Below are positions 20,720 to 26,180 of a DNA stretch of 64,000 nt, in pieces; within the stretch, counting starts at the first letter, position 1, and each line of letters opens with the position of its first letter. Under the pieces are notes generated by a model. The model was not told the origin of the DNA. It searched no databases and was given only the letters and a program-made list of their open reading frames with translations. The DNA lies in NCBI RefSeq assembly GCF_002854065.1, contig NZ_CP024147.1, one strand, 5' to 3'. Origin of the DNA: Escherichia coli. GTDB lineage: Bacteria > Pseudomonadota > Gammaproteobacteria > Enterobacterales > Enterobacteriaceae. Both the position numbers and the translations under genes were made by a program.

Positions 20720-21438
20720 CCGAGTTACCAATCGACGAAAACACACCGCGTATTTTGATCGTGGAAGATGAACCGAAGCTGGGGCAGTTGCTCATTGATT
20801 ATCTACGTGCTGCGAGCTATGCGCCGACGCTTATCAGCCACGGCGATCAGGTACTGCCGTATGTGCGCCAGACACCACCGGATCTGATCCTGTTAGATCT
20901 GATGCTCCCTGGCACCGATGGCCTGACGCTGTGCCGGGAAATTCGTCGTTTTTCTGACATTCCGATCGTGATGGTGACGGCAAAAATCGAAGAGATCGAT
21001 CGCCTGCTGGGGCTGGAGATTGGCGCAGATGATTATATCTGTAAGCCGTACAGCCCACGGGAAGTGGTAGCGCGCGTCAAAACCATTTTGCGCCGTTGCA
21101 AACCGCAGCGCGAGTTGCAGCAACAGGATGCTGAAAGCCCGTTGATTATCGACGAAGGTCGTTTTCAGGCTTCATGGCGCGGTAAAATGCTTGACCTGAC
21201 GCCTGCGGAATTTCGTCTGCTGAAAACGCTCTCTCATGAACCAGGAAAAGTGTTCTCCCGCGAGCATTTGCTCAATCATCTTTATGACGACTACCGCGTA
21301 GTAACCGACCGCACCATCGACAGCCACATTAAAAACCTGCGCCGCAAGCTGGAATCTCTCGACGCCGAACAGTCATTTATCCGCGCCGTTTACGGCGTCG
21401 GTTACCGCTGGGAAGCCGACGCCTGCCGCATCGTTTAG
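20716..21438 (+). CDS. baeR: OmpR-family response regulator BaeR
   Basis: 240-aa ORF with receiver domain (ILIVEDEP...DLMLPG) and winged-helix output domain. Confidence 0.9.
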
Positions 21439-21628
21439 TTTTAGCGACATTATTTTGTTAGCCGGAGATGGCGTTCAGACCCGATCCGGCAACATTATCC
21501 CACGCATGGTCAGCAAACTGACATTATCTCTCCGCCCTGGCAGGCATCAGAAAATCGCTCATACTTTAATCGGTAAACAGCACCTTTAGATGCTGTTTTC
21601 GATACACAATTTCAATCAAGGAGTCATT

Positions 21629-21961
21629 ATGGCTGGTTGGTTTGAACTCAGTAAGAGCAGTGATAATCAGTTCCGGTTTGTGCTAAAAGCGGGCAATGGT
21701 GAGACTATCCTCACCAGCGAGCTGTATACCTCAAAAGCCTCTGCGGAAAAGGGCATCGCGTCGGTGCGTAGCAACAGCCCGCAAGAAGAACGCTATGAGA
21801 AAAAAACGGCAAGTAACGGCAAATTCTATTTCAATCTGAAAGCCGCTAATCATCAAATTATCGGCTCCAGCCAGATGTACGCCACCGCACAATCTCGTGA
21901 AACCGGAATTGCCTCCGTTAAAGCCAATGGCACAAGCCAGACGGTGAAAGACAATACGTAA
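21629..21961 (+). CDS. yegP: DUF1508 (YegP) family protein with two internal repeats
   Basis: ORF 21590..21961; start at the Met at 21629 preceded by an aaggag RBS; ~110 aa with two repeated ~50-aa units. Confidence 0.8.
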   Translation: MAGWFELSKSSDNQFRFVLKAGNGETILTSELYTSKASAEKGIASVRSNSPQEERYEKKTASNGKFYFNLKAANHQIIGSSQMYATAQSRETGIASVKANGTSQTVKDNT

Positions 21962-22214
21962 TTACGATGCCGGGCGTGGGTTGTTGGCGTCCGGCTTTAT
22001 ATCCAAATAACGCTTAGTTATTGATAATTAAGAGTAACTGCCGCCATTAAAATAGTGGGCACTGACGAGCACTCGTTGTGCTTTCTTTGTTTACCATCCC
22101 ATACTTATCCTCCTGAACATGTTCATGTGCCAAAATATCTTCTAATACTTTCGTGACGCTATCCGGTTTATGACATACACTGATGTAAGATTTTTACTTA
22201 CAGGCGGGCGTAAA

Positions 22215-22466
22215 ATGGCCAGAACGATGACGGTTGATCTCGGCGATGAGTTGCGTGAATTTATCGAGTCCTTAATTGAATCCGGCGACTATCGCACCCA
22301 AAGCGAAGTGATCCGTGAGTCACTGCGATTACTTCGAGAAAAGCAAGCAGAGTCTCGCCTGCAAGCGTTACGTGACATGCTCGCAGAAGGGTTGAGTAGT
22401 GGTGAAGCTCAGCCGTGGGAAAAGGACGCGTTCTTACAGAAGGTGAAAGCAGGGATAAGGAAATAA
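22215..22466 (+). CDS. Type II antitoxin, ParD/RHH (CopG-like) family
   Basis: ~83-aa product (MARTMTVDLGDELREFIESLIESGDYRTQSEVIRESLRLLREK...) with a ribbon-helix-helix N-terminus typical of ParD; stop lies 1 nt before the toxin start. Confidence 0.75.
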   Translation: MARTMTVDLGDELREFIESLIESGDYRTQSEVIRESLRLLREKQAESRLQALRDMLAEGLSSGEAQPWEKDAFLQKVKAGIRK

Positions 22467-22467
22467 T

Positions 22468-22764
22468 GTGCGTATTATTAAACTCATGCCAAAAGCCAAT
22501 GAGGATTTAGAAGGCATCTGGTATTACAGCTATCACCATTTCGGCGAACCACAAGCCGACAGATATGTGGAACATCTTTCAGACGTTCTCCAGATTCTGA
22601 GTAACAATAATATAGGTACGCCCAGACCTGAATTAGGCGAAGGTATTTTTGTTCTTCCTTTTGAACGCCACGTCATTTATTTCCTGCAATCACCAGGGGA
22701 AATTATCGTCATTCGTATCCTTAACCAAAACCAGGACGCCACCAGACATTTACACTGGAGCTAA
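22468..22764 (+). CDS. Type II toxin, ParE/RelE superfamily
   Basis: 98-aa product (MRIIKLMPKANEDLEGIWYYSYHHFGEPQADRYVEHL...IIVIRILNQNQDATRHL) with the ParE-like pattern; GTG start translationally coupled to the upstream antitoxin. Confidence 0.75.
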   Translation: MRIIKLMPKANEDLEGIWYYSYHHFGEPQADRYVEHLSDVLQILSNNNIGTPRPELGEGIFVLPFERHVIYFLQSPGEIIVIRILNQNQDATRHLHWS

Positions 22765-22866
22765 ACCCGCCGATTGCGCTACAATGCCCGCCCTTAAAGT
22801 GGGGGCACTCCCCTAACCGCTTCATCAGGTGAAGCGGATCTGACCTGTCATCAGAACGAGAGAATT

Positions 22867-24228
22867 ATGTTTAAACCGGAACTCCTTTCCCCGGCGGGAA
22901 CGCTGAAAAATATGCGTTACGCTTTCGCTTATGGCGCAGATGCTGTTTATGCGGGCCAGCCGCGTTATTCCCTGCGTGTGCGCAACAACGAATTCAACCA
23001 CGAAAATCTTCAGCTCGGCATCAATGAAGCCCACGCGCTGGGGAAAAAGTTTTATGTCGTGGTCAACATTGCACCGCACAACGCCAAGCTGAAAACCTTT
23101 ATCCGTGACCTGAAACCGGTGGTGGAAATGGGGCCGGATGCGCTGATTATGTCCGATCCAGGGCTGATTATGCTGGTGCGTGAGCACTTCCCTGAAATGC
23201 CGATCCACCTCTCGGTGCAGGCTAACGCCGTAAACTGGGCGACGGTGAAATTCTGGCAGCAAATGGGCCTGACCCGCGTGATCCTCTCTCGCGAGCTGTC
23301 GCTGGAAGAGATTGAAGAGATCCGCAATCAGGTGCCGGATATGGAGATCGAGATCTTCGTTCACGGCGCACTGTGCATGGCCTACTCCGGTCGCTGCCTG
23401 CTCTCTGGCTATATCAACAAGCGCGACCCGAACCAGGGTACCTGCACCAACGCCTGCCGCTGGGAGTACAACGTCCAGGAAGGGAAAGAAGATGACGTTG
23501 GCAACATCGTACACAAGTACGAGCCGATTCCGGTGCAAAATGTTGAGCCGACGCTGGGTATCGGCGCACCAACCGACAAAGTGTTTATGATCGAAGAAGC
23601 CCAGCGTCCGGGCGAGTATATGACCGCGTTTGAAGATGAGCACGGCACTTACATCATGAACTCGAAAGATCTGCGCGCCATCGCCCATGTTGAACGCCTG
23701 ACCAAAATGGGCGTGCATTCGCTGAAAATCGAAGGTCGTACCAAATCTTTCTACTATTGTGCACGCACCGCACAGGTTTACCGCAAAGCTATCGATGACG
23801 CCGCTGCGGGAAAACCGTTCGATACCAGCCTGCTGGAAACTCTGGAAGGTCTGGCGCATCGTGGCTATACCGAAGGTTTCCTGCGTCGTCATACTCACGA
23901 CGATTATCAGAACTACGAATACGGTTATTCAGTTTCTGACCGCCAGCAGTTTGTTGGTGAGTTTACCGGTGAGCGCAAGGGGGACCTCGCGGCGGTAGCG
24001 GTGAAAAATAAATTCTCCGTTGGCGACAGCCTTGAGCTGATGACGCCGCAAGGCAACATTAACTTTACCCTTGAGCACATGGAAAACGCCAAAGGTGAAG
24101 CGATGCCGGTCGCACCAGGCGATGGTTATACTGTGTGGCTCCCGGTCCCGCAGGATCTTGAGCTAAATTACGCTCTCCTGATGCGTAATTTCTCTGGGGA
24201 AACCACGCGTAACCCACACGGTAAGTGA
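22867..24228 (+). CDS. yegQ: U32-family peptidase-like protein YegQ (RlhA; rRNA hydroxylation factor)
   Basis: 453-aa ORF with U32 peptidase family sequence features. Confidence 0.85.
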   Translation: MFKPELLSPAGTLKNMRYAFAYGADAVYAGQPRYSLRVRNNEFNHENLQLGINEAHALGKKFYVVVNIAPHNAKLKTFIRDLKPVVEMGPDALIMSDPGLIMLVREHFPEMPIHLSVQANAVNWATVKFWQQMGLTRVILSRELSLEEIEEIRNQVPDMEIEIFVHGALCMAYSGRCLLSGYINKRDPNQGTCTNACRWEYNVQEGKEDDVGNIVHKYEPIPVQNVEPTLGIGAPTDKVFMIEEAQRPGEYMTAFEDEHGTYIMNSKDLRAIAHVERLTKMGVHSLKIEGRTKSFYYCARTAQVYRKAIDDAAAGKPFDTSLLETLEGLAHRGYTEGFLRRHTHDDYQNYEYGYSVSDRQQFVGEFTGERKGDLAAVAVKNKFSVGDSLELMTPQGNINFTLEHMENAKGEAMPVAPGDGYTVWLPVPQDLELNYALLMRNFSGETTRNPHGK

Positions 24229-24312
24229 TTAATATCGATTATTTTTCCCGGATGGAAAATTCTTAGAAACCGATCACATACAGCTGCATTTATTAAGGTT
24301 ATCATCCGTTTC

Positions 24313-24399
24313 GCTGAAAAACATAACCCATAAAATGCTAGCTGTACCAGGAACCACCTCCTTAGCCTGTGTAATCTCCCTTACACGGGCTTATTTTTT
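24313..24399 (+). ncRNA. cyaR: CyaR (RyeE) Hfq-dependent sRNA
   Basis: 87-nt sequence gctgaaaaacataacccataaaatgctagctgtaccaggaaccacctccttagcctgtgtaatctcccttacacgggcttatttttt matches CyaR as I recall it, including the terminator hairpin and T-run. Confidence 0.85.
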
Positions 24400-24557
24400 A
24401 TGCATAAGCCCTATCCCTGGTCACCGTCTTCCATTGACCACATCGATAGAATCTCCCTTCATAGCACGATGCCTTTCACGTAACGGCATCGTGCTCGCAC
24501 AGGTTCCGGCTAAGCACAACCAGAACGCGCATGTTTGATGCTTACCAAAAAATATTC

Positions 24558-24875
24558 TCACTCTCCACATTTGAATGTCAGACGAGCGACGCCATGTAAT
24601 CCTGCACCTTCTGTCTTCAGGTCAACTATCTGCATTTTTTTGCCCTGAGTAACACAGAAATGGGCTGCATCATTTTTTACTATATTTTCTGCACCAGATA
24701 TTCTGCCCCTGGCTAAAGAAGCTTCGGCTTCGGTGTAGTATTGGTTATCGAGTTTACGCTGAATATTACTTTTATATGCAAGACCAAATTTACCGATACT
24801 TGTTTCATCATTATGCACAGCACAACCAGATATAAGAAAAATACTAATTAATGATATAGCAGCTATCTTTTTCAT
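24558..24875 (-). CDS. yegR: Small lipoprotein (YegR-like)
   Basis: ORF 24558..24935; start at the internal Met (MKKIAAISLISIFLISGC, lipobox) gives ~105 aa. Confidence 0.7.
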   Translation of the reverse strand: MKKIAAISLISIFLISGCAVHNDETSIGKFGLAYKSNIQRKLDNQYYTEAEASLARGRISGAENIVKNDAAHFCVTQGKKMQIVDLKTEGAGLHGVARLTFKCGE

Positions 24876-25280
24876 CTCACCTTCCCCCATTAAATACCAA
24901 CGACACTCTCTAGTGTTTAAATATAATAATGGCATGATTATTATAATTGAATAGGATTATAATAAATGTTCTGTACAACATTTCCTACATAAGTAGGAAT
25001 TACGGACATTGAGGCCCTTCAGGGTAACTCCATGGGGGCTTTAATATATTATATTGAAGATGCCACTGTTTAGTTGAATATTAGGTATATGCTCTTTTTT
25101 GAAATTTATCGGTGGCAGCCGTTAGTATTCGCTGTCCCCATTGCAAGCTCCTGGTGGTAACCACTGAATCTTCCATACTTGAACTGACTTTTTATCCTCC
25201 GACTTTCATCCTGTTCTGACTCCACCTTTTGTTTTCTGCTCTACACTATCTACAGACCAATCATAAAGGCACATACGATC

Positions 25281-26180
25281 ATGGCAGAATTTCCCGCCAG
25301 CTTACTGATTCTTAATGGCAAAAGTACTGACAATCTACCCTTGCGCGAAGCAATTATGCTGTTGCGTGAGGAAGGAATGACGATCCATGTGCGGGTCACC
25401 TGGGAGAAAGGCGATGCCGCACGATATGTAGAGGAGGCCCGGAAGTTGGGTGTCGCAACGGTGATTGCCGGTGGTGGCGATGGCACCATTAATGAAGTTT
25501 CTACGGCGTTGATTCAGTGTGAGGGGGATGGCATACCCGCGCTGGGAATTTTGCCATTAGGAACCGCCAATGATTTTGCCACCAGTGTAGGGATTCCTGA
25601 GGCACTGGATAAGGCGCTGAAACTGGCAATTGCCGGTAACGCCATTGCGATAGATATGGCGCAGGTCAACAAACAAACCTGTTTTATTAATATGGCGACA
25701 GGCGGATTTGGGACGCGTATTACCACAGAAACGCCGGAAAAATTAAAAGCCGCGCTGGGTGGCGTCTCTTACATCATTCATGGCTTAATGCGCATGGATA
25801 CTCTGCAACCGGACCGTTGTGAAATCCGCGGTGAAAACTTTCACTGGCAAGGTGACGCCCTGGTCATTGGTATTGGTAACGGGCGTCAGGCCGGTGGCGG
25901 TCAGCAATTGTGTCCGAACGCATTAATTAACGATGGCTTGCTGCAACTGCGCATTTTTACCGGCGATGAAATTCTTCCGGCTCTCGTATCAACCTTAAAA
26001 TCTGACGAAGATAACCCGAATATTATCGAAGGCGCTTCGTCGTGGTTTGATATACAAGCCCCACACGAAATCACTTTTAATCTTGATGGCGAACCGTTGA
26101 GCGGACAAAACTTTCATATTGAAATACTTCCGGCGGCGTTGCGTTGTCGATTACCACCAGATTGTCCATTATTGCGTTAA
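25281..26180 (+). CDS. yegS: Lipid kinase YegS (DAGK_cat family)
   Basis: 299-aa ORF with a diacylglycerol-kinase catalytic-domain GGDG motif ([13 protein letters not shown]). Confidence 0.85.

Follow-up and report, generated by a model that had tools for sequence, protein, structure and literature searches.

Between yegP, which ends at 21961, and yegQ (trhP), which starts at 22867, the window (the whole 64,000-nucleotide stretch of Escherichia coli DNA analyzed) has a 905-bp spacer (21962-22866). In all likelihood, this spacer holds an intact chromosomal type II operon pairing a ParD antitoxin (PF03693) with a ParE toxin (PF05016), carried on a 780-bp cassette that was inserted in an Escherichia ancestor and that is one of three alleles found there. 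The yegP-yegQ site is a three-allele islet hotspot. The module is of a known kind, as both proteins already carry RefSeq names in the genomes listed (WP_001307279.1 and WP_001220181.1); it is a routine, ordinary accessory toxin-antitoxin (TA) module, and its sole unusual feature is the loss of part of the neighbor gene's conserved promoter. Searches by gene name, accession, and keyword found no paper and no experimental work on the yegP-yegQ copy.

Borders and contents of the cassette

Positions are those of the window, and all features are on the + strand:

21969..21995, +, yegP terminator hairpin; part of the backbone, flanking the insertion on its left
21996..22775, +, parDE cassette; 780-bp block that K-12 lacks
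21996..22057, +, left 62 nt of the cassette, retained in the island allele and in remnant alleles
22067..22093, +, terminator-like hairpin and T-tract in the cassette leader (GAGCACTCGTTGTGCTT plus TCTTTGTTTA)
22153..22181, +, predicted parDE promoter; -35 GTGACG (22153-22158), 17-nt spacer, -10 TACACT (22176-22181)
22184..22202, +, candidate ParD operator; inverted repeat TGTAAG-N7-CTTACA after the -10, over the expected transcription start
22215..22466 (including stop), +, parD; 83-aa ribbon-helix-helix antitoxin with Pfam, TIGR, and PDB matches
22468..22764, +, parE; 98-aa ParE-type toxin with GTG start and Shine-Dalgarno AAGGA (22457-22461)
22746..22775, +, last 19 nt of parE and 11-nt cassette tail; scar in the island allele
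22776..22866, +, backbone with the predicted yegQ/trhP -10 and conserved leader

In a pairwise alignment with K-12, the match ends after ...GGCGTCCGGC (21995) and restarts at GCGCTACAAT (22776). Where the cassette stands here, K-12 has 21 unrelated bases; 21 bp were replaced and none duplicated. The initial annotation had described yegP and yegQ as adjacent in K-12 with no gene between them, which the 146-bp spacer there bears out, and had proposed an insertion of ~0.7 kb. The insertion stands, while its size is refined to 780 bp (21996-22775) in exchange for 21 bp. Its point of entry lies between the predicted yegP terminator and the predicted -10 of yegQ (trhP). The stem of that terminator (GCCGGGCG...CGUCCGGC; -18 kcal/mol, z = -2.4) is terminator-like in the scan, and the hairpin is also found in K-12, E. 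albertii, and Enterobacter. The hairpin in the cassette leader (22067..22093) folds at -15.3 kcal/mol (z = -3.3), a stability equaled by 0 of 200 shuffles, and is kept in E. whittamii; it possibly insulates parDE from yegP read-through.

The coding content of the cassette is limited to parD and parE, with no third ORF. An autonomous mobile element was considered and rejected, as there is no transposase, integrase, or recombinase and the 21 bp were replaced without duplication. At the cassette ends, 21996 and 22775, a search for direct and inverted terminal repeats returned chance-level 8- to 17-mers only. Two partial resemblances were seen: a 17-nt imperfect inverted repeat (I1) between the yegP terminator and the parE 3' end and a ~25-nt similarity between 22039-22063 and 22784-22808. 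Both are short and about 75-82% matched, and their use as recombination sites is unproven. The only non-coding RNA that Rfam (E-value search) gave across 21400-25500 is CyaR, which is outside the cassette.

The antitoxin, the toxin, and their predicted control

ParD matches Pfam PF03693 (ParD_antitoxin) over residues 1-78 (2.9e-19) and TIGR02606 with 89 bits (cut-off, 46.2). Among solved chains it matches PrpA (7YCS_D, 2e-27) as well as Vibrio, Caulobacter, and Mycobacterium tuberculosis ParD. The ORF list places the start of this reading frame upstream, at ATG 22170 (98 aa). ATG 22215, however, is the start codon that aligns across six family members; the extension from 22170 is out of frame in E. 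whittamii, and in strain GF3-3 it is broken while the 83-aa ParD ORF is intact. We therefore take ATG 22215 as the true parD start. The RefSeq start is 15 codons too long, and this error matters because it produces false "frameshifted" pseudogene calls: RefSeq flags the GF3-3 ParD as frameshifted, and the lesion sits in the spurious N-terminal extension.

The parE GTG lies one base past the parD TAA (22464-22466), with AAGGA 5-6 nt ahead of it, inside the parD 3' end. These coordinates and the AAGGA agree with the original description of two small coupled genes (22215..22466 and 22468..22764) whose second start falls 1 nt beyond the first stop. ParE matches Pfam PF05016 (ParE_toxin) over residues 4-90 (2e-13). 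The two Pfam matches, both well past what chance would give, uphold the proposed ParD-like antitoxin and ParE-type toxin. The AlphaFold model of ParE (pLDDT 88; E3-6, H8-25, H27-46, then three strands) has the ParE N-terminal two-helix hairpin.

As PF05016 covers RelE and ParE alike and the RefSeq protein name is "RelE/ParE family toxin", the toxin might not poison gyrase but be a ribosome-dependent mRNA endonuclease of the RelE kind. We consider this extremely unlikely. A PDB sequence search at E ≤ 1 gives five ParE-type toxins (PrpT, 2.3e-12; MtParE1; CcParE1; VcParE2; and MoParE2) and one marginal unnamed chain; RelE, YoeB, HigB, and YafQ are absent from these matches. The top 23 PDB chains in Foldseek are likewise all ParE-type, with 7YCS, 7R5A, 8C24, and 3KXE at TM 0.83-0.87, whereas RelE, YoeB, and YafQ reach only 0.5-0.67. 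The partner antitoxin, moreover, is a ParD (TIGR02606) and not RelB.

By homology to ParEs with gyrase activity, DNA gyrase would be the target of the toxin at yegP-yegQ. Related ParE toxins are described as acting on gyrase (Jiang et al. 2002, cited in PMC7167474), and inhibition of gyrase has been demonstrated for VcParE2 (bioRxiv 10.1101/2025.07.24.666505). For PrpT, PMC7848731 and PMC9731233 demonstrate no gyrase activity and define no target; the word "gyrase" occurs 0 times in them. The ParE studied here has Phe where VcParE2 has its key Trp25, and in VcParE2 the Trp25-to-Phe change lowered toxicity without abolishing it (bioRxiv 10.1101/2025.07.24.666505). Some chromosomal ParEs, PaParE1 for example, are described in the same source as weakly toxic or non-toxic. 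We infer that the ParE at yegP-yegQ is toxic.

The predicted parDE promoter was read by eye from the sequence; with 8 of 12 consensus matches it falls under the threshold of the scan, which explains why it is missing from the scan output. Its -10 aligns with TATAAT on a Klebsiella plasmid and TATAGT on a Pantoea plasmid, in upstream DNA that is otherwise unalignable. The six family members, chromosomal and plasmid, share a single conserved upstream block, GTAAGA...CTTACA. The footprinted motif through which PrpA regulates its own promoter, TTTG(T/A)AAT (PMC7848731), has the TGTAA core in common with the repeat at 22184-22202, and the DNA-reading strand of ParD, RTMTVD, matches that of PrpA. 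The inverted repeat is therefore a likely ParD operator.

Taken together, these elements suggest the following mechanism. GTGACG-17-TACACT would drive parD and parE as one transcript, with translation of parE coupled to termination on parD. With the N-terminal ribbon-helix-helix, ParD dimers would bind TGTAAG-N7-CTTACA over the transcription start and repress the operon, and the C-terminal half of ParD would wrap and neutralize ParE. On depletion of ParD, free ParE would be expected to poison DNA gyrase, leading to DNA breaks, SOS induction, and growth arrest.

Alleles, age, and selection

The cassette is present in 1,843 of 5,426 complete E. coli genomes (34%, about a third), while the empty allele with its 146-bp spacer accounts for 3,182 (58.6%), K-12 included. 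K-12 and most of the complete E. coli genomes thus lack the pair, and the module is accessory, as had been proposed, rather than core. In the third allele (298 of the 5,426) a 5.3-kb island has overwritten the cassette interior; BLAST comparison of the B2 island with the window shows identity stopping at 22057 and resuming at 22746. A leader query (21996-22214, 219 nt) matched 2,142 genomes, 1,836 of them with at least 80% of the query. The remaining leader-matched genomes, such as ATCC 11775 (query 1-62), have the left end only. All but 3 of 5,482 E. coli matches are on chromosomes (5,479), the 3 being on records labeled plasmid, and the yegP-yegQ chromosomal site is the single location of the cassette in the E. 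coli records examined. In the region search, most best places (3,907) reach at least 99% identity, a count that includes short flank-only matches of cassette-less genomes; identity is 97.6-100% across the full-length rows shown.

E. albertii and Enterobacter asburiae keep the empty spacer and, in it, TTTACC-17-TACAAT. The cassette is therefore a derived insertion into a conserved backbone, in line with the first reading of the locus. Since E. whittamii has the cassette at identical junctions and deleted remnants persist in Escherichia sp. E1V33 and E3659, the cassette is old and not a recent arrival. Synonymous divergence from E. whittamii is 0.16-0.23 for the cassette, an estimate built on 9-11 synonymous differences only, vs. 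0.38-1.05 for the flanks, so that plain vertical inheritance from the time the species separated does not by itself account for the pattern. A scan of species-representative genomes found three loci, including a Pluralibacter copy without an intact ORF.

Both genes are under purifying selection (dN/dS vs. E. whittamii: parD, 0.05; parE, 0.11). These values bear on whether the cassette is a decaying, non-functional leftover of an old insertion, a reading to which the remnants in E1V33, E3659, and the B2 island allele, and the RefSeq flag on the GF3-3 ParD, would lend weight. Both ORFs are intact in the window, though, and with the low dN/dS, the intact 83-aa ParD of GF3-3, and the near-identity of the full-length rows, decay is already contradicted for the allele in the window and has hardly any probability as a general account. 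What the site offers is a clean natural TA cassette without mobility genes, for which the ancestral state, the insertion, the internal-deletion remnants, and the overwriting island are all recoverable; it is useful for studying how islets arrive, persist, and decay.

Persistence, the trhP promoter, and related systems

Judged by analogy to other chromosomal TA islets, selfish self-stabilization, rather than a dedicated host function, most likely lies behind the persistence of parDE: the pair would be hard to delete and would spread by homologous recombination through its conserved flanks. We infer this selfish role, together with autoregulation and read-through, as we do any biological role of the cassette.

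In K-12 the scan calls a yegQ/trhP promoter, TTTACC-17-TACAAT (two overlapping registers of one site vs. 0.1 expected), and this predicted promoter and the leader are conserved in K-12, E. albertii, and Enterobacter. The 21 bp displaced by the cassette include its conserved -35 (TTTACC in K-12); the window retains the -10 TACAAT (22780-22785), its cognate -35 is gone, and the promoter scan calls no + strand promoter at this site. Neither the terminator scan nor folding finds a terminator between parE and yegQ. With the -35 lost and no terminator in the cassette, trhP in carriers is probably transcribed in part by read-through from the ParD-regulated promoter. Because the lost element is conserved across genera, the locus lends itself to testing whether a selfish cassette can rewire a housekeeping gene.

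The same observations could be taken further, with the pair retained mainly as a domesticated regulator in which ParD-controlled transcription of trhP makes tRNA U34 hydroxylation depend on the TA system's state. The lost -35, conserved from E. coli to Enterobacter, the missing promoter call, and the open end after parE all favor such a role; yet the window retains the -10 and a complete leader, along with a weak -35, TGGAGC (3/6), so trhP may fire by itself, and a role as promoter donor does not explain purifying selection on parE. We judge it distinctly unlikely. Of the functions raised in the initial annotation (addiction, phage defense, persistence), phage defense gains no support from any result here. 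An abortive-infection or phage-defense module triggered by phage infection would have precedents, in a general way, among type II TA systems, some of which protect against phage, and would fit the position of the pair in a variable islet hotspot. It is, however, very unlikely: in PADLOC-DB 2.0 no family matches ParD or ParE at E ≤ 0.1, no defense genes adjoin the pair, and no complete homolog occurs in 50,697 phage records. The single phage match covers toxin residues 1-42 (43%) in an unannotated 2-kb Salmonella phage record, and PHROG matches of parDE are to generic toxin and antitoxin families only.

Relatives on plasmids raise a different prospect. PLSDB lists 883 plasmid records with ParDE paralogs (461 from Escherichia) but no true plasmid copy above 80% identity; its two "plasmid" matches at 99.6% are records of 1.4 Mb and 4.8 Mb. 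A plasmid origin was rejected, as the best true plasmid relatives have ~69-71% DNA identity with saturated synonymous sites and no recent donor was found; saturation (pS about 0.8) makes the chromosome-plasmid split ancient. IncF-type plasmids of Klebsiella, Pantoea, Citrobacter, and E. coli carry ParDE with ParD 92-93% and ParE 62-65% identical to the pair here, and with the same GTAAGA...CTTACA operator repeat and the same parE GTG start. The high ParD identity (Klebsiella pINF078-VP, Pantoea pDSJ09, and a Citrobacter IncF plasmid) includes the toxin-binding C-terminal half. The plasmid ParDs differ in being 88 aa long and overlapping parE, and the sampled E. coli IncFIA/FIB copy is a decayed pseudogene.

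As an anti-addiction or cross-talk module, the chromosomal ParD might neutralize the toxin of IncF-type virulence and resistance plasmids and/or co-repress their ParDE operons, such that carriers can lose these plasmids or withstand retention by them. The 92-93% identical antitoxin, the shared operator repeat, the abundance of plasmid paralogs, and the decay of the sampled E. coli copy point this way. The cognate toxins, in contrast, are only 62-65% identical and ParD-ParE pairs are often mutually insulated, and we regard cross-talk of this kind as unlikely. The same word applies to the joint proposal that ParD acts in trans on IncF-type plasmids (neutralizing ParE and/or repressing the operons) while the parDE promoter partly drives trhP. 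The unusually conserved antitoxin nonetheless makes chromosome-plasmid cross-talk testable; if true, a trans-acting ParD could influence which plasmids are lost or kept by roughly one in three E. coli strains.

Among known systems, the closest solved and characterized relative is PrpT/PrpA of the Pseudoalteromonas rubra megaplasmid pMBL6842 (7YCS; PMC7848731, PMC9731233). ParD is 61% identical to PrpA (2e-27) and ParE 39% to PrpT (2.3e-12, TM 0.87); the PF03693-PF05016 pairing, the antitoxin-first operon, a near-identical RTMTVD strand, and the TGTAA operator core are all shared, and PrpA represses its own promoter (PMC7848731). PrpT/PrpA is plasmid-borne, and PrpA also binds plasmid iterons and sets copy number, whereas parDE here is chromosomal and without a replicon; the E. 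coli cassette is essentially always chromosomal, unlike a plasmid copy-number controller of the PrpT/PrpA type. ParDE-I of IncI/IncF plasmids was set aside as nearest characterized relative, being 15-21% identical to RK2/Caulobacter ParD/ParE and a separate lineage (Kamruzzaman and Iredell).

Caulobacter ParDE1 (3KXE), Vibrio cholerae ParDE2 (7R5A), and M. tuberculosis ParDE1 (8C24) are chromosomal two-gene operons of the same two families and the same fold (ParE TM 0.83-0.84 at 26-31% identity; ParD matches of 1e-10 to 3e-12). They differ in their low sequence identity and in having Trp25 in VcParE2 where Phe stands here, and gyrase inhibition is shown for some of them. PaaR-PaaA-ParE from E. 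coli O157:H7 prophages (5CW7/5CZF) shares a ParE-fold toxin (TM 0.75, 16-17% identity) but has a third regulator gene, a non-ParD PaaA antitoxin, and a prophage location; the cassette has no third ORF, a ribbon-helix-helix ParD antitoxin, and core-gene flanks. In its setting the pair resembles other chromosomal TA islets, such as ccdO157 of E. coli between folA and apaH and Salmonella parDE between relA and mazG (PMC7167474), which are also small, free of mobility genes, and strain-variable at a conserved intergenic site where alternative cargo is possible. Those islets occupy other sites, and the ccd toxin belongs to another family; at yegP-yegQ, an element of the downstream promoter has been deleted as well.

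The gene pair and its family

yegP stops at 21961 and yegQ/trhP begins with ATG 22867; the spacer separating them is exactly 21962-22866 and holds two ORFs on the same strand. Their coordinates bear out the two adjacent small genes of the initial annotation, with the parE GTG 1 nt after the parD stop. An AAGGA lies 5-6 nt before this GTG.

22215-22466, + strand: parD, 83 aa, start ATG 22215
22468-22764, + strand: parE, 98 aa, GTG start one base past the TAA of the upstream ORF

Two starts are possible for parD, ATG 22170 (98 aa, RefSeq) and ATG 22215 (83 aa, the start first proposed). Sequence comparison indicates that the 83-aa form is correct: ATG 22215 is aligned as the start in six of six family members, with no conserved coding sequence upstream; in Escherichia whittamii a one-base indel shifts ATG 22170 into another frame; E. 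coli GF3-3 has a broken extension but an intact 83-aa ORF (one substitution); and the alignment to the Pfam ParD model begins at residue 1 of the shorter protein. The RefSeq/PGAP start is 15 codons too early (extra stretch 22170-22214), with ATG 22170 inside the inferred promoter; in GF3-3 (comparison locus L019:1364-1661) the early start yields a RefSeq "frameshifted" pseudogene call despite an intact 83-aa ParD.

Both proteins match the profiles expected of the proposed ParD/ParE-like toxin-antitoxin pair. The antitoxin matches Pfam ParD_antitoxin (PF03693, 2.9e-19) and NCBIfam TIGR02606 (89 bits; cut-off 46.2) and, among solved ParD chains, PrpA (PDB 7YCS, 2e-27), then ParD of Vibrio cholerae, Caulobacter and M. 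tuberculosis. The toxin matches ParE_toxin (PF05016, 2e-13); a PDB sequence search returned PrpT (2.3e-12), MtParE1 (5.8e-8), CcParE1 (2.3e-7), VcParE2 (6.8e-7) and MoParE2, besides one marginal unnamed chain (E 0.34), and no RelE, YoeB, HigB or YafQ chain at E ≤ 1. An AlphaFold model of the toxin, built from a 14-sequence alignment (pLDDT 88), has the order strand, two-helix hairpin, three strands; in Foldseek its first 23 matches are all ParE-type (TM 0.83-0.87 to PrpT, VcParE2, MtParE1 and CcParE1), followed by RelE-type RNases (TM 0.5-0.67). On this evidence the pair belongs to the ParE subtype of ParD/ParE modules, a narrower placement than the RelE/ParE superfamily. In carrier genomes RefSeq already names the genes "type II toxin-antitoxin system ParD family antitoxin" and "RelE/ParE family toxin". 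Family, fold and islet behavior are textbook and the element is ordinary and already catalogued; our literature search found no paper on this yegP-yegQ locus.

Alleles of the site and history of the cassette

In K-12 BW25113, yegP and yegQ are adjacent and 146 bp apart, in line with the initial annotation. Alignment to K-12 delimits a 780-bp cassette (21996-22775) that replaces 21 bp of K-12 sequence, GCTTTACCAGAGCCCCCCACA (905 - 146 = 780 - 21). The empty arrangement, including the 21-bp segment, is conserved in E. albertii and Enterobacter asburiae; the empty form is therefore ancestral and the cassette a derived insertion into a conserved backbone, as first read. Its accessory status was likewise confirmed by presence and absence.

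Alleles of the yegP-yegQ site in 5,426 complete E. coli genomes (a biased sample, so that the shares should not be read as population frequencies)
Full 905-bp region with parDE: 1,843 genomes, 34.0%
K-12-type empty spacer: 3,182 genomes, 58.6%
5.3-kb island: 298 genomes, 5.5%
Unresolved (by difference): about 100 genomes, about 2%

The pair lies between yegP and yegQ in both carriers whose context was examined (O103:H2 12009 and GF3-3). E. coli matches are nearly all chromosomal, and the median genome has one of them. Two 99.6% "plasmid" matches are to records of 1.4 Mb and 4.8 Mb; the module is absent from genuine plasmids, whose relatives of it are 69-71% identical.

The island, whose carriers include ATCC 11775, S88, A0 34/86 and clone D i2, has four genes on the opposite strand; one product is hypothetical, and the others are a DUF4034, a DUF1266 and a PcfJ-domain protein. 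It has no convincing PADLOC match. It lies at L010:1894-6609 (A0 34/86) and L020:7091-11806 (ATCC 11775), corresponding to window 22058-22745. The cassette's first 62 nt survive in this allele, and identity with the window resumes at 22746, the last 19 nt of parE; the island therefore overwrote a pre-existing parDE cassette.

E. whittamii (L005) has the cassette with both junctions identical. In Escherichia sp. E1V33 and E3659 the spacer measures 343-344 bp and retains the left ~64 nt and the 3' 43 codons of parE; a deletion has removed the promoter together with parD and the 5' half of the toxin gene. When these remnants (L007:1379-1480, L014:2856-2957) are compared with the island allele (L010:6590-6712), they continue past the shared left ~64 nt with ~14 nt (GAGGATAAGCTTCA) that look more like the island allele (GTAAATAAGTTTCA) than like the parDE allele. 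This stretch, too short to decide, hints that alleles recombined or that a composite ancestor had island and parDE together.

Compared with E. whittamii, parD of the window has a dN/dS of 0.05 and parE one of 0.11; both genes are therefore under purifying selection. The dS of the cassette (parD 0.23, parE 0.16, from only 9-11 synonymous differences) is lower than that of the flanks (yegQ 0.38, baeR 0.50, yegP 1.05), which suggests, as a hint rather than proof, that the cassette moved between Escherichia lineages after their split, most simply by homologous recombination via the conserved flanks. ORF and repeat searches of the cassette found no transposase, integrase, terminal repeats or target duplication.

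Regulatory sequences

The cassette opens with 160 nt of non-coding sequence. Upstream DNA is unalignable among the window, E. whittamii and plasmid paralogues of Klebsiella, Pantoea, Citrobacter and E. coli except for one block: a -10-like hexamer (TACACT in the window; TATAAT and TATAGT in two plasmids), directly followed by an inverted repeat GTAAGA...CTTACA, then the Shine-Dalgarno sequence and ATG.

22067-22093: stable terminator-like hairpin and T-tract in the cassette leader, z = -3.3, conserved in E. whittamii
22153-22158, + strand: inferred parDE -35, GTGACG (from sequence)
22176-22181, + strand: inferred parDE -10, TACACT (from the aligned block)
22184-22202, + strand: inverted repeat TGTAAG-N7-CTTACA, candidate ParD operator

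PrpA, the closest characterized antitoxin, represses its own promoter via a footprinted TTTG(T/A)AAT motif (PMC7848731; PMC9731233), and its DNA-reading strand is virtually the same as that of ParD here (RTMTVD); on these grounds the repeat is a putative ParD operator. Within the cassette no gene lies upstream of the hairpin for it to terminate; it may insulate against read-through from yegP or be left over from the donor context.

At the other end, the replaced 21-bp segment contains TTTACC, with TACAAT 17 nt downstream. A scan of the K-12 spacer called no promoter-like site besides this pair (found in two overlapping registers against 0.1 expected), and both hexamers are invariant as far as Enterobacter. 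The window retains TACAAT (22780-22785) and an intact 91-nt leader but has lost the -35; the best substitute read from the sequence is TGGAGC, a 3-of-6 match, and a promoter scan called no + strand promoter at the yegQ -10 region. There is no intrinsic terminator between parE and yegQ, so read-through from the parDE promoter into trhP is plausible. The 91-nt leader (22776-22866) hardly varies between E. coli and Enterobacter asburiae and has two hairpins that lack U-tracts, GCCCGCCC...GGGGGC and CCGCUUCAUC...GGUGAAGCGG; its fold is not stabler than shuffled sequence (z = -1.1), and it may be a conserved regulatory 5' UTR.

Elsewhere in the window, 10066-10212 holds a single Sib antitoxin RNA (Rfam SIB_RNA, 150 bits) upstream of mdtA; at the equivalent place A0 34/86 has two annotated Ibs toxin genes and K-12 has sibA and sibB, so that the copy number of this type I repeat seems to vary among strains. 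Three other non-coding elements, all of them expected, are as follows.

24311-24396, + strand: CyaR sRNA, 100.7 bits, just downstream of yegQ
41571-41667, - strand: TPP riboswitch, an expected element
63100-63180, - strand: Peptidase-S11 leader RNA, an expected element

Plasmid relatives, mechanism and role

Window 22215-22764 was compared with IncF-plasmid paralogues (L009:2532-3081, L017:1534-2083, L018:1534-1800). ParD is 92-93% identical and ParE just 62-65%; parE has a dN of about 0.24 against about 0.05 in parD, with synonymous sites saturated (pS about 0.8). In this family toxins are reported to be generally more conserved than antitoxins (PMC7848731), a trend that these pairs reverse. 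Trans-acting cross-talk of the chromosomal ParD with plasmid modules is improbable; what keeps it in consideration is this conservation pattern together with the shared operator. The conserved antitoxin and mis-set RefSeq start, like the three-allele hotspot and the lost trhP -35, are testable but incremental side observations.

Decayed relatives also occur. On the E. coli IncFIA/FIB plasmid pRIVM_C039227_1 (L008:2501-3089) ParD is truncated at 60 aa and the locus has no parE ORF; many other E. coli plasmid matches share this 68.8% identity and cover no annotated gene, and may represent the decayed copy too. A parE-like sequence of Pluralibacter gergoviae (L006:4001-4290; 69% identity, tblastn), between alanine racemase-like and aminotransferase-like genes, has no intact ORF of at least 60 aa and is probably a decayed chromosomal copy at a different site.

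By homology, ParD2-ParE2 complexes would form and repress the operon, and free ParE would poison gyrase. Gyrase targeting is documented for RK2 ParE and VcParE2 (PMC7167474; bioRxiv 10.1101/2025.07.24.666505), so toxicity and a gyrase target are predicted for the window ParE by homology; for PrpT, the closest characterized relative, however, no target is defined in PMC7848731 or PMC9731233. Trp25 of VcParE2 is Phe at the equivalent position here, a substitution that in VcParE2 reduced toxicity without abolishing it, and some chromosomal ParEs are reported to be barely toxic (bioRxiv 10.1101/2025.07.24.666505).

A phage-defense role for parDE finds no support: the pair has no PADLOC match, and phage records hold no complete copy, the sole match being toxin residues 1-42 in an unannotated 2-kb record. 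The observation holds up, and the initial interpretation is supported. The module occupies a single site, lacks mobility genes, is patchily distributed, survives as remnants in some lineages and is under purifying selection where carried, a pattern that fits the selfish-islet picture of other E. coli chromosomal toxin-antitoxin loci (PMC7167474).
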